IMG/VR virus record: IMGVR_UViG_3300044655_001017
DNA: 64,000 bases
Direction: 5' to 3' (one strand)
DNA from: a virus
Lineage: Duplodnaviria; Caudoviricetes
Shown: positions 6,640 to 52,621 of the stretch, piece after piece
Layout of the letters: every line of letters begins with the position of its first letter
Position numbering within the stretch: position 1 is the stretch's first letter
Notes under the pieces: model-generated
What the model was told of the DNA's origin: nothing
What the model saw: the letters and a program-made list of their open reading frames with translations, nothing else
The model's database searches: none
Translations under genes and position numbers: made by a program

Positions 6640-6642
6640 ATA
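6635..6642 (+). promoter_or_regulatory. T4-like late promoter (TATAAATA)
   Basis: Exact TATAAATA followed by GGAG RBS and ATG at 6659. Confidence 0.6.
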
Positions 6643-6658
6643 TGAAAAAGGAGATTTT

Positions 6659-6991: not shown

Positions 6992-7065
6992 TAGATACAT
7001 ATAAATTTGCAATATTTGCACAAGTATGTTATTATAATACTTTATATTAACTAAGAGGTGCTACT

Positions 7066-8061: not shown

Positions 8062-8066
8062 TCAAT

Positions 8067-8094
8067 AAAAAAGGCAGCTTACGCTGCCTTTTTT
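8067..8094. terminator. Bidirectional intrinsic terminator
   Basis: AAAAAAGGCAGC-TTAC-GCTGCCTTTTTT between convergent uvsE and queD. Confidence 0.85.
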
Positions 8095-8095
8095 C

Positions 8096-8629
8096 TTATC
8101 CTGTATATCTACAATGGCTTTTGCGAGTTTCCCACAGCTCAACTGCAGTAACCTTTGCTACATCACCTATACGTGATTGAGCATATTCAAACAAATACTT
8201 ACAAATGTTTTCACTAGTTGGTACAAAATCTACTAGTACAAAACTGTTATAATGTAATTGTTCACCTTCAGTTAATCCAACCCAGTTGTAACTTCCTAAG
8301 TTAGTAAAGTTTGCAAATGGGTGTTTGGCTTTGCTCCATTCGTTACCTGTAATTAACTTAAAGTTTGGATCATTGATATCAATCATAAACTTATGATCTA
8401 GCACATCATCTACAAATTGTTTCATAAAGTTTAAATTCTTAAAGTCTGTAACCATTTCTGAATGATCTAACGTATCAGAACCTAAAAATACTTTAATTGA
8501 ATAGCTGTGTCCGTGTAAATGCTTGCAGGCACAGTCAGTTGAAATACTTAACTCAACATGATTTAATTTTTGTGCCCATACTCTGTGTCCCATTTCAAAA
8601 TGAAACTCTTTATCTATTTCCCATTTCAT
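8096..8629 (-). CDS. queD: 6-carboxy-5,6,7,8-tetrahydropterin synthase (QueD)
   Basis: KEFHFEMGHR, CKHLHGHSY (CxxxHGH), MVTDF, LDHKF, PTSENI, ELWET. Confidence 0.9.
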   Translation of the reverse strand: MKWEIDKEFHFEMGHRVWAQKLNHVELSISTDCACKHLHGHSYSIKVFLGSDTLDHSEMVTDFKNLNFMKQFVDDVLDHKFMIDINDPNFKLITGNEWSKAKHPFANFTNLGSYNWVGLTEGEQLHYNSFVLVDFVPTSENICKYLFEYAQSRIGDVAKVTAVELWETRKSHCRYTG

Positions 8630-8656
8630 ATAATTGCCTGTCTATTAAAAAGCTAT

Positions 8657-8685
8657 ATTATATAATCATTGCTTCAAGAAGTCAA
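8657..8685 (-). promoter_or_regulatory. sigma70-type promoter for queD
   Basis: TTGACT-N17-TATAAT on the minus strand. Confidence 0.75.
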
Positions 8686-8686
8686 C

Positions 8687-9064
8687 CTACTTCTTCATAT
8701 CAGCACAACTATCTACTGCTGGACTGTTGCCAGTTGTTTCTTTACAATTCACAATAATCTTTATTTGGTCAAGATCTGATGTAATCTCATTTAATATTTG
8801 ATATTCAGAATGCACCGCCCTAACTATTTTACCAATTGCACTAACTGTCCAATACCACCAATTTACACTAACTATTAAACTAACCGAAATAATTCCCCAC
8901 CAAATTAAATTATTATTAAAACTAGAAAGATAAAACCAACTAACAATTATACCAATAACTGCTACTACTACTAACGAACTAGCATATAACCATAATCTAC
9001 GCTGCTGATAGATCACTTCTAACTCGACAGTATGATCTGTTATTTTATTTCTCACATCATCCAT
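8687..9064 (-). CDS. Small two-TM membrane protein
   Basis: Likely start MDDVRNK overlaps the upstream stop (TAATG); two hydrophobic segments. The track start at 9121 is probably too long. Confidence 0.65.
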   Translation of the reverse strand: MDDVRNKITDHTVELEVIYQQRRLWLYASSLVVVAVIGIIVSWFYLSSFNNNLIWWGIISVSLIVSVNWWYWTVSAIGKIVRAVHSEYQILNEITSDLDQIKIIVNCKETTGNSPAVDSCADMKK

Positions 9065-10521: not shown

Positions 10522-10539
10522 AGTTAAGTCTCTTTTTAA

Positions 10540-10590
10540 TATTTATCATAACTATGGCGAAGTATTATACACGCAGAAATCTTATAAATA
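10540..10590. promoter_or_regulatory. Divergent pair of late-promoter-like motifs
   Basis: GATAAATA on minus (10540-10547) and TATAAATA on plus (10583-10590) between divergent structural genes. Confidence 0.55.
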
Positions 10591-10608
10591 CTGCAAACGA
10601 GAACAAAT

Positions 10609-33209: not shown

Positions 33210-35869
33210 GTTATGTAGATGCATGGTTTGATCGCGATAATGATGTTATTAAAATTGTAGAAAGAAATTCAAAAGGTGAACGGGAATACAAAGATATTGC
33301 CGTTAAACACACATTATATTATACAGACCCGAAAGGGAAATATCAATCAATTTACGGAGACCCCGTATCAAAAGTAATTTGTAACAATACAAAAGAGTTC
33401 CGCAAAGAACTTTCAATACACGGTAATAAAAAGCTGTTTGAAGCAGATATTAATCCAATTTTTAAATGCTTATCAGATAACTACCTTAATCATGACGCAC
33501 CTAAATTAAATATTGCGTTTTATGATATTGAGGTTGATTTCGATCCAGAACGCGGGTATGCATCACCCGATGATGCGTTTATGCCTATTACTGCTATTGC
33601 AGTGTATTTACAATGGTTAGATACTCTTATTTGTTTAGCAATACCTCCAAAGACATTAACTATGGATCAAGCTAAAGAACAAATTAGAGATATTCCAAAT
33701 ACTATTCTCTTTAACACAGAAGCAGAGATGTTAGACACATTTTTAACACTGCTTGAAGATGCTGATATTATTAGCGGATGGAATAGTGAAGGATTTGATA
33801 TACCATACACTGTAAATCGTGTTACAAAAGTTCTATCAAAAGATGATACACGCAGATTCTGCTTGTTTAATCAATTACCAAAAAGACGTGAATATGAAAA
33901 GTACGGCAAAGCTGCAGTAACATACGACTTTGTAGGACGTGTGCATTTAGATAGTTTACAATTATATCAAAAGTACACATATGAAGAAAGACATAGTTTT
34001 AGACTTGATGCTATTGCTGAATATGAGTTAGGTGATCGTAAAACACAGTACGAAGGTACGCTTGATCAGTTATACAACAATGACTTTAGAACGTTTATTG
34101 AGTACAACCGTCAAGATACTATGCTATTACACAGACTTGATACAAAATTAAAGTTTATTGACCTAGCTAATACACTTGCACACGAGAACACTGTATTACT
34201 ACAAACTACTATGGGTGCGGTTGCTGTAACAGAACAAGCAATTATTAACGAATCACATCACAGAGGGTTTGTTGTACCTAACAGAAAAGGTAAAGCAGAA
34301 CCAATTCAAGCTGCAGGTGCGTATGTTGCGTATCCTAAAGAAGGAATTCATGACTGGATTGGCTCGCTAGATATTAACTCTCTGTATCCAAGTGCCATTA
34401 GAGCATTAAATATGGGTCCGGAGACTATTGTAGGACAACTTAGACCAATCGTAACTGACGAATACATAGGCTTACAACTAGCTAAAGGTAAATCGTTTGC
34501 TTCTGCATGGGAAGGGTTGTTTGGTACACTTGAATATACGTCTGTTATGAATGAAGAAATAGGTACTGATATTACAATTGACTGGGAAAATGGCGATACT
34601 GATATATTAAGTGCTGCTGAAGTATACAGATTGATATTTGAAAGTAATCAGCCATGGGTTATGTCAGCTAATGGAACTATCTTTTCATATGAAACAGAAG
34701 GTATTATTCCTGGATTACTAAAGCGATGGTATGCAGAACGTAAGGATATGCAGAAAAAGCTAAAAGAAGCTATTAATGCAGGTAATAAGATTGAAGAAGA
34801 ATATTGGGATAAACGTCAGCTGGTTAAGAAGATTAACCTAAATAGTTTATATGGTGCTATTCTTAATCCTGGATGTAGGTTCTTTGATAAACGTATTGGG
34901 CAATCAACTACGTTAACTGGCAGACAAATTGCTAAACACATGGCAGCTAAAGTAAATGAGATTATAACCGGCGAATACAATCACACAGGTAAGTCTATTA
35001 TTTACGGTGACACTGACTCTTGTTACTTTTCAGCGTATCCTACACTTAAACGTGAAATAGATAATGGTAGTTTACCATGGTCTAAGGAAACTGTTGTTCA
35101 ATTATATGATCAAATTAGTGATCAAGTTAATAGTACATTCCAACAGTTCATGCTTGATGCATTTCATTGCCCTAAATCACGTGGTGAAGTAATTAAAGCT
35201 GGTCGTGAGATTGTTGGTAGTAAGAGCTTATTCATTACTAAAAAACGTTATGCAGTACTAGTATACGATAAGGAAGGTAAACGTAAGGATACACTTGGTA
35301 AAAACGGTGAAATTAAAGCTATGGGCTTAGATTTAAAGCGTAGTGATACACCTGAATTTATTCAAGACTTCTTATCACAAGTATTAGAAATGGTATTAGG
35401 TGGTGATACTGAACAGCATGTACTAGATTACATCAGTAAGTTTAGGATATCGTTTAAAGCTAGACCAGGTTGGGAAAAAGGTTCGCCTAAACGCGCTAAT
35501 AGCATTACGTCTTATTTAGAAAAAGAAGCTAAACAAGGCAAAGTTAATATGCCCGGACATGTTAGAGCAAGTTTAAACTGGAATACACTAAAACGTATGT
35601 ATGATGACAAGTATTCGATGTCTATTACAGACGGTGCAAAGGTAATTGTATGTAAACTTAAACAAAACCCATTAGGGTTTACAAGTGTTGCGTACCCAGT
35701 AGATGAATTACGCTTACCGCAATGGTTTAAAAACCTACCATTTGATCATAATGGAATGGAAGATACTATTATTGATAACAAACTTGATAACTTGATTGGC
35801 ATTTTGAACTGGAAATTAGCTGACACGTCAGATAGAAACACATTTAACAGTTTATTTGAATTTGAATGA
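33206..35869 (+). CDS. Family B DNA polymerase (T4 gp43-like)
   Basis: Exonuclease motifs YDIEV, GWNSEGFDIPY and YNRQD; polymerase motifs DINSLYPS, KINLNSLYG and YGDTDS. Confidence 0.97.
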   Translation: MSYVDAWFDRDNDVIKIVERNSKGEREYKDIAVKHTLYYTDPKGKYQSIYGDPVSKVICNNTKEFRKELSIHGNKKLFEADINPIFKCLSDNYLNHDAPKLNIAFYDIEVDFDPERGYASPDDAFMPITAIAVYLQWLDTLICLAIPPKTLTMDQAKEQIRDIPNTILFNTEAEMLDTFLTLLEDADIISGWNSEGFDIPYTVNRVTKVLSKDDTRRFCLFNQLPKRREYEKYGKAAVTYDFVGRVHLDSLQLYQKYTYEERHSFRLDAIAEYELGDRKTQYEGTLDQLYNNDFRTFIEYNRQDTMLLHRLDTKLKFIDLANTLAHENTVLLQTTMGAVAVTEQAIINESHHRGFVVPNRKGKAEPIQAAGAYVAYPKEGIHDWIGSLDINSLYPSAIRALNMGPETIVGQLRPIVTDEYIGLQLAKGKSFASAWEGLFGTLEYTSVMNEEIGTDITIDWENGDTDILSAAEVYRLIFESNQPWVMSANGTIFSYETEGIIPGLLKRWYAERKDMQKKLKEAINAGNKIEEEYWDKRQLVKKINLNSLYGAILNPGCRFFDKRIGQSTTLTGRQIAKHMAAKVNEIITGEYNHTGKSIIYGDTDSCYFSAYPTLKREIDNGSLPWSKETVVQLYDQISDQVNSTFQQFMLDAFHCPKSRGEVIKAGREIVGSKSLFITKKRYAVLVYDKEGKRKDTLGKNGEIKAMGLDLKRSDTPEFIQDFLSQVLEMVLGGDTEQHVLDYISKFRISFKARPGWEKGSPKRANSITSYLEKEAKQGKVNMPGHVRASLNWNTLKRMYDDKYSMSITDGAKVIVCKLKQNPLGFTSVAYPVDELRLPQWFKNLPFDHNGMEDTIIDNKLDNLIGILNWKLADTSDRNTFNSLFEFE

Positions 35870-36665: not shown

Positions 36666-37057
36666 TGATGGATATTAGAAAAGCATTAAAATTATTAGAT
36701 ATCATATATGTAAACGAAAACGATAGCATTAAATCGTCAGTTGATAAACTAACAATGTTAGCGCAATTAGATATGCCATCTTATTCTATGCCAGGACCGT
36801 TTGAACAGTTTTATGTTGATTACGAATACATGAAACAACGTGTGCAAGGACTTGAATCGAGATTAACCACACTTGAAGATTATAATCGAAACCCATATAC
36901 AAATTACACTGTTAATTCGCATATAGTTGGACATGTTACTGCAAGTCCGCAGTTTGTAAGTGCATTTAACAGAATTACACAATTAGAAACTGAATTACAA
37001 GTTACTAAAACGTTACTTAGTAAGTTATTAACCCCAGAACAGGAAGAAGATGAATAG
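36665..37057 (+). CDS. Hypothetical coiled-coil protein
   Basis: Coupled to flanking genes. Confidence 0.65.
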   Translation: MMDIRKALKLLDIIYVNENDSIKSSVDKLTMLAQLDMPSYSMPGPFEQFYVDYEYMKQRVQGLESRLTTLEDYNRNPYTNYTVNSHIVGHVTASPQFVSAFNRITQLETELQVTKTLLSKLLTPEQEEDE

Positions 37058-38945
37058 AAACTTAACAGCAACACAACAGGATTATGCCGTGTTTTTGCCA
37101 GCAACGTCGGGTTTTTACTCGACGTTTGTTGGAAAACAACGTTACGGCAATTATGTTGAGCCGTCACGTATTCCAACATCATTTAAAGCAGGCGTAGAAG
37201 GTCTTAATTACTTAGAACCAGAAAAAGGTGAATTTTATTACAGATGGTGTTTGTATTCAGCAGGGCATGCAAACTTAGATTTAAATAAGTTTGACGAAAG
37301 TGAAGATATGTTCCGTAATAGAGATAGAAGTACTAGCTGGGTGTTAGGTGACTCCGGAGGCTTCCAAATAGGGAAAGGTGTATGGGAAGGCGAATGGAGA
37401 GATCCTAACAGTGCAATAGTACAAACAACTATGGCTGATTGCATTGCTAAAGGTATTGAAACTGTTCCTGTACTTGACTCAACAGGAAATCCAGTAGTTA
37501 ACAAAAAAGGTGTTCCTAAAACTACTAAAATTGATCACGTTAAACTATATCAAGCTCGGTTAGATGCTGCTCAAAAGAAAAGAGAGCAAGTATTAGCATG
37601 GATGGATACGTTAATGGATTACGGAATGGTACTTGATATTCCAGCATGGGTTGAACGAAGTCCTGCTGGTAAACTTGCAACTGGTATTACAAGTTATGAC
37701 GAAGCAGTTGATGCTACAATTTATAACAATGAATACTTTATGAAACACCGCAATGGTAACTGTAAATTCTTAAACGTATTACAAGGTGAAACCCATACAC
37801 AAGCTGACGATTGGTATAGTAAGATGAAAGACTTTTGTGATCCTGCTATATATCCAGATACACACTTTAACGGGTGGTCAATGGGTGGTCAAAATATGTG
37901 TGATGCCGAACTAGTACTTAAACGTGTAGTAACATTAAAATTTGACAACTTGTTACAAGAAGGCAAACATGATTGGATGCATTTCTTAGGAACCAGTAAA
38001 TTAGAATGGGCATGCTTTTTAACTGATGTACAACGTGCAGTGCGTAAATATGTTAATCCAAAATTTACTATTAGTTATGATTGTGCTAGTCCATTTTTAG
38101 CTACTGCTAATGGTCAGGTATATATTACTACAGAATTAGATGATAGATCTAAATGGGTGTATCGAATGGTTCCAAGCGTTGACGATAAAAAGTATGCACA
38201 AGATGCTAGACTATTTAAAGATGCAGTAATACAAGATGGTATTTTTAGTGTGTTTGATCCAAGTCCATTAATTGATCAAGTAGCAATTAAAGACGTGTGT
38301 ATATATGGTCACGGTGTTCCTAATTGGACAGAAGTCAATAACGATAATGTTGATCATGCTAACCTATTTACAGATCCAAAATATTTAAATGATCCTAAAT
38401 ACTGGATAACATTAGGCGATGCAAATAAAATTAACAAGATTGGTAAAACTAGTTGGGATAGTTTTAGCTATGCTATTTTAATGGGGCATAATGTGTGGAG
38501 TCACGTTAATGCTGTACAAAAAGCAAATGAAGCTTACGACAACGGTATAATTCCTCGAATGTTAATAGGCGAAAAAACTCAACCGTATGTTGTTAGAGAT
38601 ATTATTGACCGGATTATTGCGTGTGATGATAGAACCGTTGCTATTAAGATGATTGAAGATCTTGAAAAGATATGGATGGCTATTCCGGGCACTAGAGGTA
38701 ACACTGGCAAAAACATAGTTAACAACGAAACTACTACTACTACTAATTATGTAGCCGAATCAATTATTACAGAAAAAGTTGAAAAAATTAGAAAAGTGTT
38801 ATTAACAGATCTTACATCACAAGTTAACAACTTATTTGATTTTGATGACAATATTACAGAAGAAGTAGAATCCGATGACTATGAGTTTTCTGAAGAAGAC
38901 GAACTTACCTTATCTAACCTAGAAGATAGCATTAAACATGAATAG
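37050..38945 (+). CDS. TGT-fold guanine transglycosylase (DpdA-like)
   Basis: GDSGGFQ, VLDIP, VLQG, SMGG, HFLG, SYDCAS and GHN match the order of TGT active-site motifs; no CxCxxC zinc motif. Confidence 0.82.
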   Translation: MNRNLTATQQDYAVFLPATSGFYSTFVGKQRYGNYVEPSRIPTSFKAGVEGLNYLEPEKGEFYYRWCLYSAGHANLDLNKFDESEDMFRNRDRSTSWVLGDSGGFQIGKGVWEGEWRDPNSAIVQTTMADCIAKGIETVPVLDSTGNPVVNKKGVPKTTKIDHVKLYQARLDAAQKKREQVLAWMDTLMDYGMVLDIPAWVERSPAGKLATGITSYDEAVDATIYNNEYFMKHRNGNCKFLNVLQGETHTQADDWYSKMKDFCDPAIYPDTHFNGWSMGGQNMCDAELVLKRVVTLKFDNLLQEGKHDWMHFLGTSKLEWACFLTDVQRAVRKYVNPKFTISYDCASPFLATANGQVYITTELDDRSKWVYRMVPSVDDKKYAQDARLFKDAVIQDGIFSVFDPSPLIDQVAIKDVCIYGHGVPNWTEVNNDNVDHANLFTDPKYLNDPKYWITLGDANKINKIGKTSWDSFSYAILMGHNVWSHVNAVQKANEAYDNGIIPRMLIGEKTQPYVVRDIIDRIIACDDRTVAIKMIEDLEKIWMAIPGTRGNTGKNIVNNETTTTTNYVAESIITEKVEKIRKVLLTDLTSQVNNLFDFDDNITEEVESDDYEFSEEDELTLSNLEDSIKHE

Positions 38946-39462
38946 ACAGTATAATAACATAACTACTAACACTGCTAAATTTTTTGTTGGTAACGAGGTA
39001 GAACACACACCAGCATATGGTTTAAAAACATTGTTTGTTGTTGGTAATCAAACTATAGAAGCAGTACATTATCGGTTAGATGCTGAAGAAGATGTTACAC
39101 ACATCTTCTTTGGTGCAAACCATAGCTTTAATCCAAATACACCAGGTGCATGGATTGACTGGAATCACATAATTGAACACTTTTTAAAATTAGGCAAACA
39201 GTGTTCATTAGATATTCCATTTACAGTAGTAAACGATTTTAATAATAAAACTAACTTATGTTCATATTCAAATTTTATTCCACAAATTAGAATTCCGGTT
39301 GCAAATATTAAAGATTGGAGTTATAATACAATGATAAAATTAGATGACATAGATTTTAACGCAACTAATCCCGGGGTGTGGACACATAACTTAAAAGCAT
39401 TGCAAAATGATGATGTGTTTACTAGCTGGACTGACTATAACAACGACAATATAATTAAATGA
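38938..39462 (+). CDS. Hypothetical protein coupled to the TGT-like gene
   Basis: Overlaps both neighbours; GNEVEHTPAYG, HIFFGANHSF, TNPGVW. Confidence 0.7.
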   Translation: MNRQYNNITTNTAKFFVGNEVEHTPAYGLKTLFVVGNQTIEAVHYRLDAEEDVTHIFFGANHSFNPNTPGAWIDWNHIIEHFLKLGKQCSLDIPFTVVNDFNNKTNLCSYSNFIPQIRIPVANIKDWSYNTMIKLDDIDFNATNPGVWTHNLKALQNDDVFTSWTDYNNDNIIK

Positions 39463-39818
39463 CAGATACACAAATGATATGGGTTTCTTTTAAGAAAGAA
39501 GGAATTCACCATTACCCCGATGCATTAACTAACCCTAACTTAATAGATGTATCTTTTTTAGGACATCCACATAGACATATATTTCATTTTAAAGTATGGA
39601 TAGAAGTTACGCATTCTGACAGAGACATTGAGTTTATACAATTTAAACGATGGTTAGAATCATTGTATATTAGTTCAACATTATCATTAGATAACAAAAG
39701 TTGTGAAATGATAAGTAATGATTTATCATTAACAATTAGAAATGAATACCCTAATAGGGAAATTTGGATTGAAGTTTCTGAAGACGGCGAAAACGGATCA
39801 TTTATTAAGTATTTGTAA
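39459..39818 (+). CDS. T-fold QueD paralogue, DpdL-like (predicted CDG decarboxylase)
   Basis: FLGHPHRHIFHF (LxxxHRHxF in place of CxxxHGH), DRDIEF, SCEM, VSEDGENG. Confidence 0.7.
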   Translation: MTDTQMIWVSFKKEGIHHYPDALTNPNLIDVSFLGHPHRHIFHFKVWIEVTHSDRDIEFIQFKRWLESLYISSTLSLDNKSCEMISNDLSLTIRNEYPNREIWIEVSEDGENGSFIKYL

Positions 39819-39819
39819 T

Positions 39820-40032
39820 ATGAAACATTTTGTCTCAAAAGCTATGCTTGAACAACAGATTAATCGGTTACGCCAAGAGATATCAGACTTTGAAATCCAA
39901 CATATGAAATCAGTTAACCCTAAACTTAAAAACGTATTACACATTAAACAATTAAGAAATCAACTGTACGATTTGAAGGAACAACTGCTAATTCGTACTA
40001 ATCAAACTATATTAAAAAACGGAAGAAAATAA
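39820..40032 (+). CDS. Hypothetical coiled-coil protein
   Basis: Start MKHFVSK right after the upstream TAA. Confidence 0.55.
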   Translation: MKHFVSKAMLEQQINRLRQEISDFEIQHMKSVNPKLKNVLHIKQLRNQLYDLKEQLLIRTNQTILKNGRK

Positions 40033-40033
40033 A

Positions 40034-40288
40034 ATGGCTAAAAATTACAAAACATTCTCATACTTAGAATCACGTCCAGATGTTGTTAAAATCTTTGAAG
40101 ATTTAGAAGCATTCCATGACTTTTGCAGAATTGAGTTACGTAAATTTGATCCAGCAGATTTATATCGCAAAGATAGTAAATCGTACGGTTCGTACATAGC
40201 AAGTAAACGTCCACGTAAACCATATCAAGGTAATAAACCATGGCCAAACGGTGTTAGACCTAAAAACACATATCAAAAAAAATCTTAA
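40034..40288 (+). CDS. Hypothetical basic protein
   Basis: 84 aa, in operon. Confidence 0.7.
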   Translation: MAKNYKTFSYLESRPDVVKIFEDLEAFHDFCRIELRKFDPADLYRKDSKSYGSYIASKRPRKPYQGNKPWPNGVRPKNTYQKKS

Positions 40289-40301
40289 TCTTATTTTCAA
40301 C

Positions 40302-40323
40302 TGAAAGCCCTACGGGGCTTTCA
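40302..40323 (+). promoter_or_regulatory. Stable hairpin with UACG tetraloop (terminator or mRNA-stabilising)
   Basis: TGAAAGCCC-TACG-GGGCTTTCA just before the glycosyltransferase RBS; no U tract. Confidence 0.6.
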
Positions 40324-40337
40324 CCGCAGGACATATT

Positions 40338-41435
40338 ATGAAATTAAAACCTACTATTTGGATATTTGCTATTGAACCATTAGATACTCGGTATACTAAA
40401 CAATGGATCGAGCATATTCCATCACAACTTAAAGAACACGTTGGTGATTACAACATTGTACAAATTACTGGTGATCAACAAGACTCAGAAGTAACACCGG
40501 GTGCATTTTTAAACTTTATAGATACTAACATTTGGAAAGGATCACAGCTTGTTGGTTTTTTAAAAAACTATAAACGTACTACAACAGCTGACCATTTCTT
40601 ATTTACCGATGCATGGAATCCAGCAATTATAAACTTAAAGTACATTAAAGACTTAATGAGATTAAATTGGACATTTCACGGTTTGTGGCACGCTGGCAGT
40701 TACGACAAACACGATTTCTTAGGTTCAATTGATCACGGTTGGGTTAAACTAGCTGAAAAGAGTTATTATGCAGCATTTGATCATAATTACTTTGCAACTG
40801 AATTCCACGTGCGTATGTTTATGGAACAATTATTAAACAACGGAATGACTAGTGAAAATCCGTGGTTTGAAGAAGATTGGGATGAACGTTACGACGATGG
40901 TAAAATTGTACGCACTGGTTGGCCAATGGAATACTTAGCAGACGAACTAGCGCCGTATGCTAATAAAGAGAAACGTGATTTAATTGTATTTCCACATAGA
41001 GTTGCTAGCGAAAAACAAGTTGATATTTTTAAAGCATTAGCTCATCAATTACCACAATACGACTTTGTTGTATGTCAAGAACAAAAGCTAAGTAAAGATG
41101 AATATCACAACCTGTTAAGCGAAGCAAAGATCGTGTTTAGTGCTAACTTACAAGAAACATTAGGCATTAGTTGTTATGAAGGTGCGTTACTTGGTGCTAT
41201 TCCGATGGTTCCTGATAGATTAAGTTATAAAGAAATGTATATGTATCATTTTAAATATCCATCAGAATGGACTGCTAGTTATGCAGACTACGAATCACAC
41301 AGTTATGATTTGTGTAACAAAATTATCCATTACATAGAAAACTATAATGATATTGTACCATATGTTAAACAACAAGCCGATTACTTAGCACTGGAATTTT
41401 TTAATGCAGGAGATTTATATGACAAGTTTAAATGA
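40338..41435 (+). CDS. GT-B (GT4-like) glycosyltransferase
   Basis: PHRVASEKQ, ETLGISCYE (EX7E), GAIPMVPDRLSY. Confidence 0.8.
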   Translation: MKLKPTIWIFAIEPLDTRYTKQWIEHIPSQLKEHVGDYNIVQITGDQQDSEVTPGAFLNFIDTNIWKGSQLVGFLKNYKRTTTADHFLFTDAWNPAIINLKYIKDLMRLNWTFHGLWHAGSYDKHDFLGSIDHGWVKLAEKSYYAAFDHNYFATEFHVRMFMEQLLNNGMTSENPWFEEDWDERYDDGKIVRTGWPMEYLADELAPYANKEKRDLIVFPHRVASEKQVDIFKALAHQLPQYDFVVCQEQKLSKDEYHNLLSEAKIVFSANLQETLGISCYEGALLGAIPMVPDRLSYKEMYMYHFKYPSEWTASYADYESHSYDLCNKIIHYIENYNDIVPYVKQQADYLALEFFNAGDLYDKFK

Positions 41436-41835
41436 TACAATAACAACATCAGCTGGGTGTGATACTATTACATTTACGATGGATGGAGATCTACGTTACG
41501 GTATACCAGCTTTTGATACTATTACACTTAGTGACTATGTATCTAGTTCAACTGCTAGCGGAATATACAATGGAACAATGATGGGAACTGCTCCGTACAC
41601 AATTAGTAATTCTTCTACTATTGGAATTAATGGGGGTTCATCTTATTACACCGGCACTGGTGGTTATTGGAATCAATCATATAACGGTAAACCATTTGAA
41701 GATAACTTTCCAGAATGGAATGCATTTAGAGAGTTGTGTGATGAATATCCAGGATTAGAAAGAGCATATCAAAACTTAAAAACTTTTTATACTATGTGCC
41801 ATGCAGATAGTTTATTACCAAAGGACGATAAATGA
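41419..41835 (+). CDS. Hypothetical protein
   Basis: GGAG RBS; Thr/Ser/Gly-rich, then CDEYPGLERAYQNLKTFY. Confidence 0.65.
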   Translation: MTSLNDTITTSAGCDTITFTMDGDLRYGIPAFDTITLSDYVSSSTASGIYNGTMMGTAPYTISNSSTIGINGGSSYYTGTGGYWNQSYNGKPFEDNFPEWNAFRELCDEYPGLERAYQNLKTFYTMCHADSLLPKDDK

Positions 41836-42362
41836 AAGTAGTAAAATACAGTTGGAAACAATTAGAAGGTGCGGCATTGGAGATTGCACGTCAAATACAA
41901 AAAGATAACTGGAAACCAGATTACATTGTTGGAATTACACGCGGTGGACTTATTCCTGCAAACTTACTTAGTCAGTATCTTGGAGTTAAGATGTTAACAT
42001 TACACGTTAGTTTACGTGATCATCCGGATGATAACGAACACAATGCATGGATGGCATGTGATGCATTTGGAATTACTGATGACGAACTAGCAAGTACCGG
42101 ACAAGCTAAAAACATCTTAATTGTTGATGACATAAATGACTCAGGTGCAACCCTTGCTTGGATTAAAGAAGATTGGCAATCATTGTGTTTACCAGATAAC
42201 ATACGATGGAAAAACGATGTTTGGCATAAGAATGTTAGATTTGCTGTAGTGTTTGATAATGCTGCTAGTAATGCACATGTTGATTATTGTGCTGAAGAAT
42301 TTGATAAACGAGACGATCCAATTTGGATCGACTTTCCATGGGAAAACTACTGGAAGAAATAA
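41832..42362 (+). CDS. Type I phosphoribosyltransferase (Gpt-like purine PRTase)
   Basis: VGITRGG and LIVDDINDSGAT PRPP loop; WIDFPWE ending. Confidence 0.88.
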   Translation: MKVVKYSWKQLEGAALEIARQIQKDNWKPDYIVGITRGGLIPANLLSQYLGVKMLTLHVSLRDHPDDNEHNAWMACDAFGITDDELASTGQAKNILIVDDINDSGATLAWIKEDWQSLCLPDNIRWKNDVWHKNVRFAVVFDNAASNAHVDYCAEEFDKRDDPIWIDFPWENYWKK

Positions 42363-42694
42363 TGGAACTACACTCAATAGCTAAAAAACACGGTATACGA
42401 AGTATAGACGTTGAACAATATTATGCTACAGATGGTAATTATTCGTTAGATTGGTCAAGATCAAACCTGCCAAGCGAACGAGCAAACATTACAAGGTCGT
42501 TAACTGTTAAAATACACGAGAGAGATTTTATAACGTTAATTGACAACGCTGAAAAGTGTGAAGACTGGAATAAAAAATTTTATGAAGATATGTATGTTAG
42601 AGATTCTAATCCAACTGTTAAAGCAGCATACGAAAAATATCAAATGTTTTTAGAAATAGCAAGATCGGAGGTAAAAAATGACAGATTTAACTAA
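42362..42694 (+). CDS. Hypothetical protein
   Basis: Start MELHSIAK at the TAATG overlap. Confidence 0.65.
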   Translation: MELHSIAKKHGIRSIDVEQYYATDGNYSLDWSRSNLPSERANITRSLTVKIHERDFITLIDNAEKCEDWNKKFYEDMYVRDSNPTVKAAYEKYQMFLEIARSEVKNDRFN

Positions 42695-42839
42695 AGAAGA
42701 ATTACAAGAAAAAATTGCACAAGTAAAACGTGATATTGCTAAACATAGCGATTCAAACAATCAACGTATGCTGTTAGGTTTGTCACAATATTTAGAATAC
42801 TTAGAAGACGACTTAAAAACATTGACAAACAAGCAATAG
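42678..42839 (+). CDS. Small hypothetical protein (53 aa, below the track cut-off)
   Basis: GGAGGT RBS; MTDLTKEELQEKIAQVKRDI...KTLTNKQ then TAG. Confidence 0.7.
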   Translation: MTDLTKEELQEKIAQVKRDIAKHSDSNNQRMLLGLSQYLEYLEDDLKTLTNKQ

Positions 42840-42850
42840 TGTTGTATAAT
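42822..42850 (+). promoter_or_regulatory. sigma70-type promoter for the folE-queE operon
   Basis: TTGACA-N17-TATAAT. Confidence 0.8.
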
Positions 42851-42876
42851 ACACACTTACAAATAGGAAATTAAAT

Positions 42877-43548
42877 ATGAGCTTTAATAAAACAAAAACC
42901 GATCTAGAATTAGGTTTAGCAATACATAATCATTTAGTAAGTTTAGGTGTAGAAACTCCAGTAACTGAAAAAATCTTAACAGCATCGGAAAAGATTAATA
43001 TCATTCAGGACAAGTTTTATGATATTATGGTAACATTAGGATTAGACTTAACAGACGATAGTTTAGCAGATACACCTAAACGTGTTGCAAAGATGTTTGT
43101 CAACGAAATATTTTGGGGCCTCGATTACGACGCATTTCCAAAGTGTACTACTATTCAAAATAAGATGGGATACAATGAAATGTTAATTGAACGCAACATT
43201 AACGTACAAAGTAACTGCGAACATCACTTTGTAGTAATTGACGGGTTTGCAACAGTAGGTTACATTCCAAAAGATGTTGTACTTGGATTAAGCAAAATTA
43301 ATCGCGTAGTTGAATACTTTGCAAAACGTCCACAAGTACAAGAAAGATTAACAGAACAAGTATTCCATGCATTGGCATACATTTTAGATACTGATAATAT
43401 TGCAGTAGTTATTGATGCAAAACACTATTGTGTTGCTGCAAGAGGTGTAGAAGATACAGGTAGCACTACTATTACTAGTAAGTTAGGCGGTGCATTTAAA
43501 AACGATCCAACTACTCGTGCAGAATTTATGAGTATTGTAAACAAATAA
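42877..43548 (+). CDS. folE: GTP cyclohydrolase I
   Basis: TPKRVAK, CEHHF, GLSKINR, RPQVQERLT, HYCVAARGV. Confidence 0.95.
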   Translation: MSFNKTKTDLELGLAIHNHLVSLGVETPVTEKILTASEKINIIQDKFYDIMVTLGLDLTDDSLADTPKRVAKMFVNEIFWGLDYDAFPKCTTIQNKMGYNEMLIERNINVQSNCEHHFVVIDGFATVGYIPKDVVLGLSKINRVVEYFAKRPQVQERLTEQVFHALAYILDTDNIAVVIDAKHYCVAARGVEDTGSTTITSKLGGAFKNDPTTRAEFMSIVNK

Positions 43549-43556
43549 GGAGAGTT

Positions 43557-44000
43557 ATGAAAGACTTAAAACCACAAATTCCAGCAGTAGGCATTATGAA
43601 AACAAGTGACTGGGGTAACAGTAAAATTTATAAAATTCAATGCACATGCGGCAACGACGATGATAGTATTGAGTTTATGGTTGAGGCAGATGATCTTAAT
43701 ATGATTACTGTAACTACATTTACAACGCAAAAAACTGCGTACTGGGATAGACCATTTGATGTTTCAAACACATACAAAATTAAAAATTCGTTTTTAAGCA
43801 GTATTGCATACGAAACATTGAGCTTTCTTAACGGGTTTCAGCATCGTATTAAAATGACATGGAATTTGTGGTTTAATGGTTATCTTAAATATCAGCAATC
43901 AACTATAATGACTGAACAACAGACATTAAACTATGCAGAAACATTGAAAGCTGCTATTAAAGATTGCAAAGATTTTCGTAAACAAGATAGGAACAATTAA
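43557..44000 (+). CDS. Hypothetical protein
   Basis: AAGGAG RBS; CTCG motif. Confidence 0.7.
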   Translation: MKDLKPQIPAVGIMKTSDWGNSKIYKIQCTCGNDDDSIEFMVEADDLNMITVTTFTTQKTAYWDRPFDVSNTYKIKNSFLSSIAYETLSFLNGFQHRIKMTWNLWFNGYLKYQQSTIMTEQQTLNYAETLKAAIKDCKDFRKQDRNN

Positions 44001-44839
44001 TGTTATTAAAAGTATCGGAATTATTTTACTCATTACAAGGCGAAGGGCGATTTATGGGAGTACCGTCCATCTTCTTACGTACATACGGTTGCAACTTTAA
44101 ATGCCAAGGGTTTGGCATGCCTAAAGGTGAACATAGTGTACAAGCAGATGCTATTGCTAATAACGGTGTGCAATATCATTCGTATGATGAGTTACCGTTA
44201 GTAACTACTGGCTGTGACAGTTATGCAAGTTGGCATCCAACGTTTAAACATCTAAGTCCAACTATGTCAATAGACGAAGTTGCAGCTAAAATGATTGAGC
44301 TGTTACCTAACAATGAATGGGGTGGTGTACACTTAGTTATTACAGGTGGCGAACCATTACTACCCGGTTGGCAAAAGATATATCCAGAATTACTAAGACA
44401 CCCATTATTAGCAGACTTAAAAAACATTACATTTGAAACTAATGGTACACAAGAACTGTTACAAGATTTTGAAAACTACTTATACATGGAAAGACGGTAT
44501 CAAACTACGTTTTCAGTTAGTCCTAAGCTAAGTGTAAGTGGCGAGCCTAGAGAAAAAGCTATACGTCCTGAGATTGTAACAGAATATCAATTTTCAGGTC
44601 ATAGTTCATTCTTAAAATTTGTAGTAGCATCCGAAGACGATGTAACAGAAGCACTTGAAGTAATGCAGCTATATAAAGACAACGGATTTAGAGGTGATAT
44701 TTACTTAATGCCAGTAGGCGGTGTAACTGATGTATACAATCTTAATAATCGACGAGTAGCAGAACTTGCATTAAAGCACGGATTGAGATACAGTGATAGA
44801 CTTCACCTCCCTCTCTTCGGTAACAACTGGGGAACATAA
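44000..44839 (+). CDS. queE: 7-carboxy-7-deazaguanine synthase (radical SAM, QueE) with a split Cys motif
   Basis: ELFYSLQGEG, FLRTYGCNFKC, GCDS, ITGGEPLL, FETNG, SVSPKL, LKFVV, YLMPVGG, RLH. Confidence 0.88.
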   Translation: MLLKVSELFYSLQGEGRFMGVPSIFLRTYGCNFKCQGFGMPKGEHSVQADAIANNGVQYHSYDELPLVTTGCDSYASWHPTFKHLSPTMSIDEVAAKMIELLPNNEWGGVHLVITGGEPLLPGWQKIYPELLRHPLLADLKNITFETNGTQELLQDFENYLYMERRYQTTFSVSPKLSVSGEPREKAIRPEIVTEYQFSGHSSFLKFVVASEDDVTEALEVMQLYKDNGFRGDIYLMPVGGVTDVYNLNNRRVAELALKHGLRYSDRLHLPLFGNNWGT

Positions 44840-45291
44840 TGTTTGAAAATTTTATAAAGAAAGTGTTTGGTGGTGAAAATCCAGAACTAAAACATCAACA
44901 AGAAGTACAAGCTGCAATTAAAGCTAAACAACAAGCTAAGGTTAAACCTAAACCTAAACCTAAAGCTAAAGCTAAAGAAAAGGTAATTGAAAAATTGCCA
45001 TTAACTGATAAAGAAAAAGCCACGTTAAGAAAAGAACCATGGGTTGATGTAATTGGATTTAAAGTTAATCCAAGTAACATTAGAAACGGTTTCTTTGAAA
45101 TTGATTGGAATGATTATTGGATTGAAAAATTAAAACAAGAGGGTTACGGGTTTGATGGTGATCCTGAAGAAGAAATAGTAGGTCGTTGGTACAGAGATAT
45201 TTGTATGAACGCTGCAGCCGTCGAAGGTGTTGATATATCAGATCAAGACTTCGGTTTCCTTAACGTGCAACGAGCAACAGGTAACAAATGA
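44839..45291 (+). CDS. Hypothetical protein
   Basis: KPKPKPKAKAK linker; EPWVDV...GFFEIDWND. Confidence 0.7.
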   Translation: MFENFIKKVFGGENPELKHQQEVQAAIKAKQQAKVKPKPKPKAKAKEKVIEKLPLTDKEKATLRKEPWVDVIGFKVNPSNIRNGFFEIDWNDYWIEKLKQEGYGFDGDPEEEIVGRWYRDICMNAAAVEGVDISDQDFGFLNVQRATGNK

Positions 45292-48012: not shown

Positions 48013-49104
48013 ATGAGCAACAACATCGCATCACGTACAGTCGGCCCAAAAGGCGCTAAAAAATCTTTACGCAAAGCGTTTAGCAGTAAACGTCCATTGT
48101 TTATTTGGGGACCTCCAGGAATTGGTAAATCAGACATTATTAAACAACTTGGTACTGAGTTAAATGCTCATGTTACTGACGTGCGTTTAAGTTTATGGGA
48201 GCCAACAGACATTAAAGGTATTCCATACTTTGATTCAGTAGACCAAACAATGGTATGGGCTCCACCATCAGAGCTGCCTAGCAAATCATTTGCTGAAAAA
48301 CACAAAATGATTATTTTGTTCTTAGATGAGATGAATTCTGCTGCACCAAGTGTACAGGCTGCTGCTTATCAACTTATTTTAAATCGTCGCGTAGGACAAT
48401 ACGAATTACCAGACAACGTTGTTATTGTTGCTGCTGGTAACAGAGAAACAGACAAAGGTGTTACTTATCGCATGCCAGCTCCATTAGCCAACAGATTTAT
48501 CCACTTAGAAATGGCTGTTGAATGGGATGACTACTTTGAATGGGCTACAGACAACAATGTACATCCAGATGTTGTTGGTTACTTAACTGCTTGCAAAAGT
48601 GATTTATACACCTTTGATTCAAAATCAGCAGATAGAGCATTTGCTACACCACGTTCATGGAGCTTTGTTAGCGAGTTGTTAACAGATGGCGACACTGACT
48701 CAGATACATTAGCTGACTTAGTTGCTGGTTCAATTGGCGAGGGTCTTGCTATTAAATTTATGGCACACAGACAGTTTTCAAGTAAACTTCCTGATCCACG
48801 CGCTGTACTTGACGGTAAAATTACACATTGCGAAACTAAAGAGATTTCAGCAATGTATTCACTAACTGTTAGTATGTGCTACGAGTTGAAAGAACTTTTC
48901 AACAAAAAATCTCCTAACAAAAACACAGCAATGAACAATTACTTTTTGTTTATGATGAACAACTTTGAAACTGAAATTGCAATTATGGGTACTAAACTTG
49001 CGTTATGCTCATACAAATTGCAAATTGATCCAGACGACATTGCGTGCTTTGATGATTTCCACAGCAAGTACGGCAAATACATTACTGCTGCAAGCGGTCA
49101 GTAA
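48013..49104 (+). CDS. MoxR-like AAA+ ATPase
   Basis: GPPGIGKS, LFLDEMN, AAGNR, PLANRF, TPRSW. Confidence 0.88.
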   Translation: MSNNIASRTVGPKGAKKSLRKAFSSKRPLFIWGPPGIGKSDIIKQLGTELNAHVTDVRLSLWEPTDIKGIPYFDSVDQTMVWAPPSELPSKSFAEKHKMIILFLDEMNSAAPSVQAAAYQLILNRRVGQYELPDNVVIVAAGNRETDKGVTYRMPAPLANRFIHLEMAVEWDDYFEWATDNNVHPDVVGYLTACKSDLYTFDSKSADRAFATPRSWSFVSELLTDGDTDSDTLADLVAGSIGEGLAIKFMAHRQFSSKLPDPRAVLDGKITHCETKEISAMYSLTVSMCYELKELFNKKSPNKNTAMNNYFLFMMNNFETEIAIMGTKLALCSYKLQIDPDDIACFDDFHSKYGKYITAASGQ

Positions 49105-49115
49105 TACCAAAACAG

Positions 49116-49144
49116 TTGACACCGCCGCAAGGCGGTGTTATACT
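49116..49144 (+). promoter_or_regulatory. sigma70-type promoter with a GNRA hairpin in the spacer
   Basis: TTGACA-N17-TATACT; ACACCGCC-GCAA-GGCGGTGT. Confidence 0.7.
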
Positions 49145-49174
49145 TTGTACTTTATAATTATGCAGGAGTAATTC

Positions 49175-50353
49175 ATGGCTTTAGATTCAATTGTTGATAA
49201 AATTATCGTAGCTCGCGTAGGCTTACTATTACGCCATCCTTTCTTTGGTACTATGGCAACACGTTTAAAAATTGTAGACGGATCCGACTGGTGTCCAACT
49301 GCAGCAACTGACGGTCGTCATATCTTTTATAATCGTGAGTTTTTTGAACCGTTAACTGTAAAACAAATTGAATTTGTTATTGGTCATGAAATTCTACACA
49401 ACGTTTTTGATCACATGTCACGTCGTGATGGTCGCAATCCTAAAATCTTTAATATTGCATGTGACTATAATGTAAATGGTCAGTTAATTCGTGATAAGAT
49501 CGGTGAAGTTCCGCCTGTTATTAAAATCTTCCACGACACTAACTATTACGGTATGGGTTCTGAAGAAATTTATGATAAGTTACTAGAAGATCACGATGAA
49601 GAGTCACTTTCTAAAATCGGTGAAATGCTCGACGAACACATTGACTGGGAAAGTGCAGGCCCAAACGGTCGTCCAACATACAGTAAAGAAGAATTGAAAA
49701 AGATTCGTGATGAGATTCGTGAAGCCACTATGACTGCAGCACAAGCAGCTGGTGCAGGTAATACTCCGGCAAGTATTGCGCGGTTGATTAGAGATCTTAC
49801 TGAATCTAAAATGAACTGGCGTGAGATTTTACGTCAGCAAATTCAAAGTACTATTAAAAATGACTTTTCGTTTATGCGTCCTAACAGAAAAGGTTGGCAC
49901 ATGAATGCTATTTTGCCAGGTACTAACTATGACGAAACAATTGATATCTGTGTTGCAATCGATATGTCAGGTTCAATTGGCGATGATCAAGCTAGAGATT
50001 TCTTAAGTGAGATTAAAGGCATCATGCAAGAGTATCAAGACTTTAGTATTAAGTTATGGTGCTTTGATACACAAGTATACAACGAAGCATCATTTACCGG
50101 TTATACTATTTCTGAATTTGATGAATATCAACCAAAAGGTGGCGGTGGTACTGACTTTGATGTTAACTGGGAATATATGAAGGAAAATGACATTGTTCCT
50201 AAAAAGTTCATTATGTTTACTGACGGGTATCCGTTTGGCAGTTGGGGCGACGAAACGTACACAGATACTTTATTTATTATACACGGTAATGATTCAATTG
50301 TTCCACCATGGGGCGAATATTCATACTATGAGTTTTCAAAAGAAAAGGCATAA
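49175..50353 (+). CDS. Metallopeptidase-like (HExxH) plus vWA domain protein, MoxR partner
   Basis: TAATDG, GHEILH, MIDAS DMSGS, GGGT, FTDG. Confidence 0.88.
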   Translation: MALDSIVDKIIVARVGLLLRHPFFGTMATRLKIVDGSDWCPTAATDGRHIFYNREFFEPLTVKQIEFVIGHEILHNVFDHMSRRDGRNPKIFNIACDYNVNGQLIRDKIGEVPPVIKIFHDTNYYGMGSEEIYDKLLEDHDEESLSKIGEMLDEHIDWESAGPNGRPTYSKEELKKIRDEIREATMTAAQAAGAGNTPASIARLIRDLTESKMNWREILRQQIQSTIKNDFSFMRPNRKGWHMNAILPGTNYDETIDICVAIDMSGSIGDDQARDFLSEIKGIMQEYQDFSIKLWCFDTQVYNEASFTGYTISEFDEYQPKGGGGTDFDVNWEYMKENDIVPKKFIMFTDGYPFGSWGDETYTDTLFIIHGNDSIVPPWGEYSYYEFSKEKA

Positions 50354-51565: not shown

Positions 51566-51857
51566 AGAAGTAGTTGCACACTGGCCAGAAGTATTTGAAG
51601 AGGTATCACTTAATGTGTTACCTCTTCTTTATTTGCATTCAGTAGTTATTAATTTTAAAGATAATAAGTCTTGGGAAATAAAATTAACAACTAAAATAAA
51701 AAAAGATGGATGGAATAGCTTTCAACAGAGTTTATCAGAATTGTTAAATTCGTATGAAGAAGAAATAGACGATGTAGATTTTAAACTAGATGCAGTAAAA
51801 GTAAAAAAAGATGTAGAAAAACTAACCAATAAATTTTTAAAGAAACAAAAATTATGA
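51537..51857 (+). CDS. Hypothetical protein
   Basis: TTG start with AAGGA RBS; WPEVF. Confidence 0.65.
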   Translation: MLKQTKPLPKEVVAHWPEVFEEVSLNVLPLLYLHSVVINFKDNKSWEIKLTTKIKKDGWNSFQQSLSELLNSYEEEIDDVDFKLDAVKVKKDVEKLTNKFLKKQKL

Positions 51858-52621
51858 ACATTAAATTAGTATCATATTCTCAACCAACTGAAGAATTTGC
51901 TGAATTAGGAATTACCGATGCACAAGAACTTATAGCATTTTGCGCTCGTGTAAGTAATCCGTCAAATCAGTTTAATACAGAAACTTCAGAAAAACTTATC
52001 AACTACTTAATTAAGCATGCGCATTGGTCACCGCTTGAAATGGTTAATGTGTGTTTAGAAGTAAATACCACCCGCGATATTGCACGTCAATTACTACGTC
52101 ACGCTTCATTTAGATTCCAAGAGTTTAGTCAACGCTATGCAGATCCAACAAACGATCTGTCTTTTGAAATACGCGATGCTAGATTTCAAGATCCTAAAAA
52201 TCGTCAAAATTCAATTACAATTAATACTGCAGAAGAAGAGGCGATTAATGACGAATGGCATCTAAGACAAGAAGCTCATATTAATTCAGCAAAAGCACAA
52301 TATGAATGGGCAATTAGCAAAGGCATTGCTAAAGAGCAAGCTCGTGTCGTTCTTCCAGAAGGCAACACTAAAAGTCGTGTGTATGTTAACGGGACGTTGC
52401 GCTCATGGATTCATTACATACAAGTGCGCAGTAACGTGGATACACAGCTTGAACACAAACAAGTTGCAGTAGCGTGTGCGCAAGCAATTAGCGCAGTATT
52501 TCCAATGGTAAATGACTTTGTTTATAAGGAAGAACCAGTTTTAGAACCTATTAAAGAAGAAATTGTTGAACCTAAAAAACTTAAATGGCATCAACACTTT
52601 TTTAATTTTTACAAACACTAA
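51854..52621 (+). CDS. thyX: Flavin-dependent thymidylate synthase
   Basis: ARVSN, HWSPLE, TRDIARQLLRH, QEFSQRY, EQARVVLP, LRSWIHY, TQLEH. Confidence 0.9.
   Translation: MNIKLVSYSQPTEEFAELGITDAQELIAFCARVSNPSNQFNTETSEKLINYLIKHAHWSPLEMVNVCLEVNTTRDIARQLLRHASFRFQEFSQRYADPTNDLSFEIRDARFQDPKNRQNSITINTAEEEAINDEWHLRQEAHINSAKAQYEWAISKGIAKEQARVVLPEGNTKSRVYVNGTLRSWIHYIQVRSNVDTQLEHKQVAVACAQAISAVFPMVNDFVYKEEPVLEPIKEEIVEPKKLKWHQHFFNFYKH

Follow-up and report, generated by a model that had tools for sequence, protein, structure and literature searches.

A virus-specific GT4-like glycosyltransferase linked to DpdA/DpdL deazaguanine DNA-modification genes in phages and bacterial islands

A GT4-like glycosyltransferase (GT) of the GT-B fold is encoded within a deazaguanine DNA-modification cluster of a tailed phage (Duplodnaviria; Caudoviricetes; IMG/VR record IMGVR_UViG_3300044655_001017), of which a stretch of 64,000 nucleotides, referred to here as the window, was analyzed. 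In Atlas clusters the family of this enzyme is 95-100% viral, and the GT gene is strongly linked to that of a DpdA-like transglycosylase, near-universally so wherever the genomic context suffices. Because it looks catalytically competent, comes from a virus-specific family and follows a DNA base-exchange enzyme from locus to locus, the GT very probably belongs to the deazaguanine DNA-modification pathway, and we lean towards a function in placing a sugar on the deazaguanine moiety. A literature search found no report of glycosylated deazaguanine in DNA or of a DpdA-associated glycosyltransferase, and as far as this search shows the linkage is new. To our knowledge, DNA glycosylation has so far been described only on 5-hydroxymethyl-pyrimidines, and no 7-deazaguanine described in DNA bears a sugar. 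If our reading is correct, both chemistries would be combined in widespread environmental jumbo phages.

Genomic linkage of the glycosyltransferase to DpdA

The GT open reading frame (ORF) is a real conserved gene, far beyond chance, with at least 8000 homologues at E <= 1e-3 in a 90%-identity protein collection and relatives in 1078 representative clusters of a 50%-identity library. To survey the gene context, 80 related loci were collected from IMG/VR, 41 of them with enough flanking sequence, and DpdA and DpdL are both present in all 41. A survey of GTDB genome contigs yielded 26 full-length, well-flanked GT matches, 24 of which are accompanied by DpdA at a median gap of 656 bp while the remaining two carry DpdL, FolE and QueE. 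The co-occurrence of this GT family with DpdA and DpdL, suggested as a check in an earlier sequence-only reading of the window, is strongly positive across several phage lineages and bacterial islands.

Homologues are also found in cultured phages, namely Sinorhizobium phage Phosso (47% identity), the Pseudomonas PA5oct group (44%; EST35_0317 in PA5oct), Acidovorax phage ACP17 (36%; ASD50404), the PhiXhv-12 group (26%, partial), Xanthomonas phages BUDD and X1 (24-26%) and Burkholderia phage BCSR5 (21%). The gene order is family B DNA polymerase (PolB), DpdA-like, GT, DpdL and then QueE in PA5oct; QueD, FolE, a 132-residue protein, DpdA, GT, DpdL and QueE in ACP17; and DpdL, GT, FolE and QueE in Phosso, where DpdA is encoded 170 kb away. 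BUDD encodes FolE, GT, an annotated queuine tRNA-ribosyltransferase, DpdL and QueE, and in BCSR5 the GT is followed by a 446-residue protein with a weak tRNA-guanine transglycosylase (TGT) signal, QueE and FolE. Of the cultured phages, Phosso, ACP17, PA5oct and BUDD were compared for DpdL, and each has it beside the GT (52-59% identity). In Xanthomonas phage PhiXhv-12 the GT adjoins genes for GlmS and a BshB-like deacetylase (L086:7642-10876), with a DpdA-like gene (2.4e-13) and FolE elsewhere in the genome. Our DpdA profile (A4) detected no DpdA in BUDD or in loci L121 and L124, which we attribute to limited sensitivity and not to absence because the BUDD GT adjoins the annotated queuine tRNA-ribosyltransferase.

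The association extends to distant relatives whose GT is 29-34% identical to that of the window. These loci are arranged as DpdL, GT, DpdA (L128); GT, DpdA (L136); QueE, FolE, DpdL, GT, DpdA, Polysacc_deac_1, a methyltransferase and QueD (L138, sugar part 9001-12891); dTDP_sugar_isom, Epimerase_2, FolE, DpdL, GT, a radical-SAM gene and QueD (L131, sugar part 4316-9017); and a DpdL fusion, a radical-SAM gene and GT (L134). DpdA is recognized in L128, L136 and L138 with hidden Markov model E values of 5e-49 to 3e-59. Overall, gene order varies between lineages while adjacency to the GT persists. The fusion in L134 (578-1645) is a 355-residue protein in which a DpdL-like region with the LxxxHRHxF signature is joined to extra sequence, and it is encoded next to a radical-SAM/SPASM gene and the GT homologue.

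The converse association does not hold. Vibrio phage 2.275.O._10N.286.54.E11 (349 kb) encodes a DpdA-like protein of the same clade (30% identity; MG592671.1 330312-331490) and has no detectable GT homologue, and Cellulophaga phage phiST makes 2'-deoxy-7-deazaguanosine (dDG) without this GT (PMC10516641). DpdA thus exists without the GT, which is the asymmetry expected of a downstream tailoring step.

The GT module is also present in isolates of Pelagibacterium, Devosia, Ochrobactrum, Methylobacterium, Azospirillum, Magnetospirillum, Shimia, Sulfitobacter and Thalassobius. In these alphaproteobacterial islands an operon-like module consists of a YhhQ-like Vut_1 protein, the GT, DpdA and a protein of 540-850 residues (L112:9495-14321, L116:6008-10990, L117, L098:5427-10001 and others). 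The Vut_1 protein matches PF02592 above cut-off in L098 (28.5 bits), and the YhhQ family transports preQ0 and preQ1. DpdL and QueD replace the transporter in some islands. Integrase or resolvase genes are located near the modules, often together with a histidine kinase/response regulator pair. Because GT and DpdA are retained while FolE and QueE are absent near the GT in the islands examined, the constant partner of the GT is DpdA and not the synthesis of 7-carboxy-7-deazaguanine (CDG). No pyrimidine-modifying gene is present in the islands examined, PADLOC has no match for the island proteins and Atlas searches with the large protein were uninformative. The module may represent an undescribed DNA-modification, possibly restriction, island, and the 540-850-residue protein may read the mark.

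Fold of the glycosyltransferase and composition of the cluster

The structure of the GT was predicted with AlphaFold2 on an alignment of 66 homologues, giving a model with a mean predicted local distance difference test score (pLDDT) of 93.3 and a predicted template modelling score (pTM) of 0.91. Fold comparison of this model shows that residues 2-365 superpose on GT4-type GT-B enzymes, including sucrose-phosphate synthase (6kih, Z 25.6) and BshA, MshA and BA1558 (Z 23-24). Between 300 and 316 residues can be aligned with 6kih, 3mbo and 3c4q (Z 24-25.6, root-mean-square deviation 2.8-3.4), Foldseek E values against GT4 enzymes are about 1e-10 and sequence identity to the BshA/MshA-type matches is 10-12%. 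The model possesses the two Rossmann-like domains with an active-site cleft between them that define GT-B enzymes. The EX7E motif is found as QETLGISCYE, where E273 is kept in at least 90% of the 66 members and E281 is invariant, and a GT4-like pair, R221 and K226 in FPHRVASEKQ, is likewise conserved in at least 90%. In GT4 enzymes the EX7E and R/K residues bind the donor. The retention of the GT-B fold, the EX7E motif and the R/K pair across 66 diverse members makes the enzyme look catalytically competent. The ORF, the model and the two glutamates bear out the GT-B enzyme with EX7E that had been read from the sequence. Conserved residues of the N-terminal acceptor domain are E13, R18, Y19, W23, Q70, D91, W93, H118, G120, D123, D126 and E140, many of them aromatic or acidic.

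At default thresholds the GT protein is reported by none of Pfam, PHROGs and NCBIfam, and none of its best 120 homologues in the 90%-identity collection carries a precomputed Pfam domain. Pfam Glycos_transf_1 scores 14.7 bits (E 0.022), under its cut-off of 26.4 bits, and is matched at E <= 0.1 by 50 of the 66 relatives, at best with 3e-8. The best PDB match of the family profile is AmGGT (8xsg, 2.3e-5), a UDP-glucose-dependent GT4 enzyme (PMC12159676). PADLOC contains no match for the GT or DpdA. No longer, fused form of the GT was found, a result that is weak evidence by the search method's own account. The contig around the GT is novel phage sequence of about 35% GC, and a megablast search with 10 kb of the GT cluster against 50,697 phage records gave no match. 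For window positions 37050-45291, half or more of the sampled 31-mers are present in at least 20 lake-water metagenome runs, which come from 20 studies (2020-2025) and represent the phage by assembled contigs only, and because of this recurrence the phage is regarded as widespread and recurrent in lakes.

The 631-residue protein encoded upstream is read as a DpdA of the distant, DpdA3-like kind. Its D101-S-G-G-x-Q106 motif is unchanged across 33 sequences, its identity to PA5oct gp316 amounts to 34%, and all 50 of the best PDB fold matches to its AlphaFold2 model (pLDDT 87.6) are TGTs (E about 1e-6). PDB sequence searches with DpdA-like proteins returned nothing, and the TGT identity came from the fold search. 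Pfam TGT does not detect the window protein and matches two relatives with no better than E 0.03-0.04, a weak signal consistent with the description of DpdA3 as a 'distant homolog' class (PMC10516641). Together with the DpdL motif LGHPHRHIF, which fits the published LxxxHRHxF signature (PMC10516641), and the Pfam matches downstream, the DSGGxQ motif and TGT fold support the earlier placement of the GT between TGT/DpdL-like genes and those for a phosphoribosyltransferase (PRTase) and FolE (Table 1).

The cluster comes after PolB, and the window encodes FolE, QueD and QueE for CDG synthesis in addition to DpdL. The QueE-like gene is homologous to the annotated QueE of PA5oct, BUDD and ACP17, and matches NCBIfam QueE models with 7.5e-14 to 1.7e-8, under their cut-offs. 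A CxxxHGH motif occurs just once in the window, as CKHLHGH inside the QueD ORF. The PRTase matches the NCBIfam xanthine PRTase model with 5.9e-16, under cut-off, is present in 48 of the 80 related loci and has a weak homologue in PA5oct; it may return guanine released by DpdA to GMP and thereby feed FolE. A Pribosyltran gene and a nucleoside 2-deoxyribosyltransferase-like gene are found near the distant GT relative of L136 (8384-10410), and these genes and the PRTase may salvage excised guanine or give a nucleotide-level route.

Three further proteins of the cluster are conserved. The 174-residue protein has no Pfam, PHROG or NCBIfam match, an Atlas search with it gave no lead, and it is 25% identical (6e-9) to the 132-residue protein between FolE and DpdA of ACP17. 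The 84-residue protein has no Pfam or PHROG match, and the 150-residue protein is 46% identical over 72 residues to a 203-residue PA5oct protein at the same position. The C-terminus of PolB (35846-35866) reads NSLFEFE and resembles NNLFDFD in the disordered tail of DpdA (about 38802-38822), which may be a docking peptide shared by the two proteins; such a tail is absent from the GT. Complex prediction for the GT with DpdA residues 1-550 gave a score of 0.00, which was counted neither for nor against binding.

Table 1. Features of the GT cluster and other annotated genes of the window.
Feature	Coordinates	Strand	Details
GT4-like GT-B glycosyltransferase, virus-specific family	40338..41435	+	ATG start, 365 aa
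DpdA-like DNA (deaza)guanine transglycosylase, TGT fold, long C-terminal tail, 631 aa	37050..38945	+	DSGGxQ motif, fold matches
Conserved 174-aa protein between DpdA and DpdL	38938..39462	+	in 67/80 related IMG/VR loci
DpdL, QueD-like T-fold protein, 119 aa, proposed CDG decarboxylase	39459..39818	+	motif, phrog_17812 2.8e-34
Small conserved 84-aa protein just upstream of GT	40034..40288	+	in 75/80 related loci, always in this position
Purine phosphoribosyltransferase, XPRT/HGPRT-like	41832..42362	+	Pfam Pribosyltran 4.8e-17
FolE, GTP cyclohydrolase I	42877..43548	+	Pfam GTP_cyclohydroI 3.7e-60
QueE-like radical-SAM 7-carboxy-7-deazaguanine synthase	44000..44839	+	Pfam Radical_SAM 3.8e-7
Conserved 150-aa protein downstream of QueE	44839..45291	+	in 54/80 related loci
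Canonical QueD (6-carboxytetrahydropterin synthase), 30 kb from cluster	8096..8629	-	Pfam PTPS 1.8e-28
ThyX	51854-52621		
Giant ORF	52662-62486	-	3274 aa
Giant ORF, runs off window	3-6272	-	at least 2090 aa
UvdE-type UV endonuclease	7066-8061		2.6e-38
ClpB-like double AAA+ chaperone	22675-24969		
MoxR AAA+ protein paired with DUF2201 metallopeptidase-VWA protein	48013-50353		

Acceptor, sugar and alternative functions

We propose that the GT is a soluble, nucleotide-sugar-dependent, GT4-like and probably retaining enzyme that would act as a dedicated tailoring enzyme of the DpdA/DpdL pathway. FolE, QueD and QueE would convert GTP to CDG, and DpdL would convert CDG, presumably by decarboxylation, to 7-deazaguanine (DG). 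The DpdA-like transglycosylase would swap guanine in phage DNA for the deazaguanine, and the GT would then add a sugar to the deazaguanine moiety, our best guess being a hexose or N-acetylhexosamine drawn from the UDP-sugars of the host. This would yield a glycosylated 7-deazaguanine whose bulk could act against restriction and other DNA-targeting defences. Fold, catalytic motifs, neighbours and linkage are observed, while acceptor, attachment position, sugar and step order are our inference. Transfer would most likely take place on DNA after insertion and less likely on the free base before it. All nucleic-acid glycosylations that we know of, namely those of T4, base J and QTMAN/QTGAL on tRNA, occur on the polymer, and for this reason action on DNA after insertion is favored.

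The sequence-only reading had also proposed a glycosylated deazaguanine, with the carboxyl or hydroxyl at C7 as handle. The linkage of the GT to the deazaguanine system is strong, but the strict co-occurrence in phages of the GT with DpdL, the proposed CDG decarboxylase, makes this handle doubtful and probably wrong. A position common to all 7-deazaguanines, for example N2, or action before insertion appears to fit the gene content better than a C7 carboxyl or hydroxyl. Huimycin and the dapiramicins carry a sugar on the 2-amino group of a 7-deazapurine (PMC7439116), and an N2-type position, which DG, CDG and preQ0 share, is therefore chemically precedented.

With regard to the sugar, three lineages have sugar genes beside the GT, which encode deacetylases of two unrelated families, GlmS and isomerases/epimerases. 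BshA and MshA, which are among the fold matches, use UDP-N-acetylglucosamine (UDP-GlcNAc). The combination of adjoining sugar genes and UDP-GlcNAc-dependent fold matches hints at a hexosamine in at least some lineages, and the sugar genes of PhiXhv-12, L138 and L131 hint at an N-acetylhexosamine that is later deacetylated. In the window, where the cluster shows no sugar gene, the sugar may simply come from a host UDP-sugar.

Several observations weigh against sugar transfer to deazaguanine in DNA. No sugar-nucleotide or deacetylase gene was seen in the window. The classical major-groove handle is missing, as the 7-deazaguanine left by DpdL would have neither O nor N attached to C7. Many of the GT loci are interrelated and represent roughly six independent phage lineages and several types of alphaproteobacterial island, not hundreds of independent cases. 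The GT is acidic (isoelectric point (pI) 5.2; family median 5.6), and its closest solved structures act on small molecules, namely malate, inositol phosphate, fructose-6-phosphate, ergothioneine and tetrahydrobiopterin, which suits a free base or metabolite as acceptor no less than DNA. The acidic pI and the small-molecule GT4 matches keep a step on the free base open.

The acidity of the family also speaks for a GT whose acceptor is a small molecule of the pathway in free form, such as a pterin intermediate, free CDG or DG, or excised guanine. In that case the sugar would never reach DNA and could serve to trap bases, keep them soluble, export them or regulate their pool. Pterins are products of FolE and QueD, and the tetrahydrobiopterin glucosyltransferases 5zer, 5zes and 9v0l are among the fold matches together with other small-molecule GT4 enzymes. 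There is precedent in HuiG, which glycosylates a free 7-deazapurine (PMC7439116), and in the cyanobacterial BGluT, which does so for tetrahydrobiopterin. We nevertheless consider this function unlikely. The pterin glucosyltransferases do not outrank dozens of other GT4 enzymes, and pterins are no constant partner of the GT, as the islands keep GT, DpdA and a base transporter without nearby FolE or QueE. The constant partner is instead a DNA-acting enzyme.

Glycosylation of a protein or of the envelope, with a virion protein, DpdA, another replication protein, lipopolysaccharide or teichoic acid as target and an indirect linkage to DpdA, fits poorly; the sequence-only reading had raised the host envelope and virion proteins as alternative targets. 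GT4 enzymes commonly target lipids, polysaccharides and proteins, TarM, GtfA, PglA, WbnH and PimA are among the fold matches, and AmGGT, the best sequence-profile match in the PDB, is an oligosaccharide glucosyltransferase (PMC12159676). However, this family is nearly virus-only and locked into replication and deazaguanine modules; its gene lies in a replication/nucleotide module near PolB and not among structural or lysis genes, accompanies DpdA into bacterial islands that are not phages, and encodes a protein in which direct reading of the sequence finds neither a signal peptide nor a membrane segment. We therefore regard a protein or envelope target as quite improbable.

A tRNA-modifying system, in which the TGT-fold enzyme would insert a deazaguanine that the GT glycosylates in the manner of QTMAN (GTDC1), which mannosylates queuosine in eukaryotic tRNA-Asp, is less probable again. 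Among solved folds the DpdA-like protein comes closest to TGT, and a bacterial cluster named tRNA-queuosine alpha-mannosyltransferase (PF12038 QTMAN_N) is among the nearest Atlas folds of the GT (template modelling (TM) score 0.71/0.73), but this cluster is no closer than other GT4 clusters and QTMAN_N matches none of the 66 GT members even at E 0.1. DpdA3-type enzymes are moreover tied to fully modified DNA in phiST and Campylobacter phage CP220 (PMC10516641), and the DNA of PA5oct itself withstands restriction enzymes at G-containing sites (PMC12191111). A resemblance of the C-terminal half of the GT to GTDC1/QTMAN was not borne out by QTMAN_N and is echoed only generically by the fold.

We give almost no credence to T4-like glycosylation of 5-hydroxymethyl-pyrimidines independent of the deazaguanine genes, even though no other class of phage DNA glycosylation is established, the enzymes of this one are GT-B and a cyanophage S-TIM5 protein named DNA alpha-GT ranks 12 in the BFVD list, since that match (TM 0.45-0.51) equals generic GT-B, the islands examined lack pyrimidine-modifying genes and the required synthase family was not seen in the window ORFs and the three complete genomes scanned. 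Neither T4 alpha-GT nor beta-GT is among the top 50 PDB fold matches. The earlier statement that the window encodes no hydroxymethyl-pyrimidine synthase and that ThyX is its sole thymidylate synthase holds for the ORFs scanned: no ThyA/hydroxymethylase family (PF00303) was seen among them, the scan having covered all but the two giant ORFs of the minus strand and a few small ones. A ThyA-family gene is likewise absent from the complete genomes of ACP17, BUDD and BCSR5, three of five GT-bearing phage genomes, which makes a T4-like route unlikely in these phages as well.

In its most specific form, our reading of the GT as a deazaguanine-tailoring enzyme leads to a tentative prediction. The PA5oct, ACP17, Phosso, BUDD and BCSR5 groups, abundant lake and marine jumbo phages and the alphaproteobacterial islands may carry a hexose or hexosamine on 7-deazaguanine in their DNA, attached at N2 or, through a DpdL-coupled decarboxylative C-glycosylation, at C7, and this could be the first sugar-bearing guanine analogue known in any genome. 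If true, it would bear on the modified G of PA5oct, which is chemically undefined and sensed by END nucleases; the authors of that work infer modified G in GA and/or GG and note QueE and PTPS genes (PMC12191111). It would also address the failure of ACP17 dpdA and dpdL to yield dDG in Escherichia coli (PMC10516641). Five cultured phages carry the GT and the question is open to direct testing. A new bulky modification of G would matter for the evasion of restriction and CRISPR, for Pseudomonas phage-therapy candidates and for sequencing artefacts in metagenomes, and the GT is a possible enzymatic tool for labelling 7-deaza-dG DNA.

Comparison with known systems

The alpha- and beta-glucosyltransferases of T4 and the glucosyltransferase of trypanosome base J likewise decorate a pre-installed non-canonical DNA base with a UDP-sugar, and the T4 enzymes share the GT-B fold. 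They differ in that no specific kinship of sequence or fold with the GT was apparent, that no hydroxymethyl-pyrimidine pathway was found here in the ORFs and genomes scanned and that the presumed acceptor is a purine analogue. QTMAN (GTDC1), also of the GT-B fold, adds a sugar to a 7-deazaguanine derivative that is already part of a nucleic acid, but it acts on the cyclopentenediol of queuosine in tRNA, for which these phages have no means of synthesis.

The GT4 and deacetylase pairs BshA/BshB and MshA/MshB provide some of the best structural matches, and a similar pairing recurs at the phage GT in PhiXhv-12 (BshB-like, with GlmS) and L138 (Polysacc_deac_1). In contrast, the acceptors of BshA and MshA are malate and inositol phosphate in thiol biosynthesis, and the window cluster is without a recognisable deacetylase.

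HuiG (KALB_4073) of the Kutzneria albida huimycin cluster resembles the GT in cluster logic and in the chemistry proposed for it. Encoded among FolE, QueD, QueE and QueC genes, it transfers GlcNAc from UDP-GlcNAc onto the exocyclic 2-amino group of a 7-deazaguanine scaffold, as assigned by gene-cluster deletion analysis and modelling (PMC7439116; bioRxiv 10.64898/2026.04.15.718813). Because the HuiG product carries its sugar at the 2-amino group, no C7 handle is needed. HuiG differs in acting on free, O6-methylated preQ0 in secondary metabolism and in being encoded in clusters without DpdA. The glycosidic bond of huimycin is beta, in contrast to the retention of configuration that is usual among GT4-like enzymes.

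The closest system is that of phages with DpdA3-type DpdA and DpdL, such as Cellulophaga phage phiST and Campylobacter phage CP220 (Cui et al. 2023; PMC10516641), which share with the window the FolE/QueD/QueE route, the DpdL motif, a distant TGT-fold DpdA next to the DNA polymerase and the lack of a visible QueC. phiST differs in making plain dDG and in having no homologue of this GT, whereas ACP17, named as a DpdL/DpdA phage in the same study (PMC10516641), has the GT inside its cluster. Compared with phiST, the lineages studied here possess the GT as a constant extra component, joined in many of them by the PRTase and two or three conserved unknown proteins.

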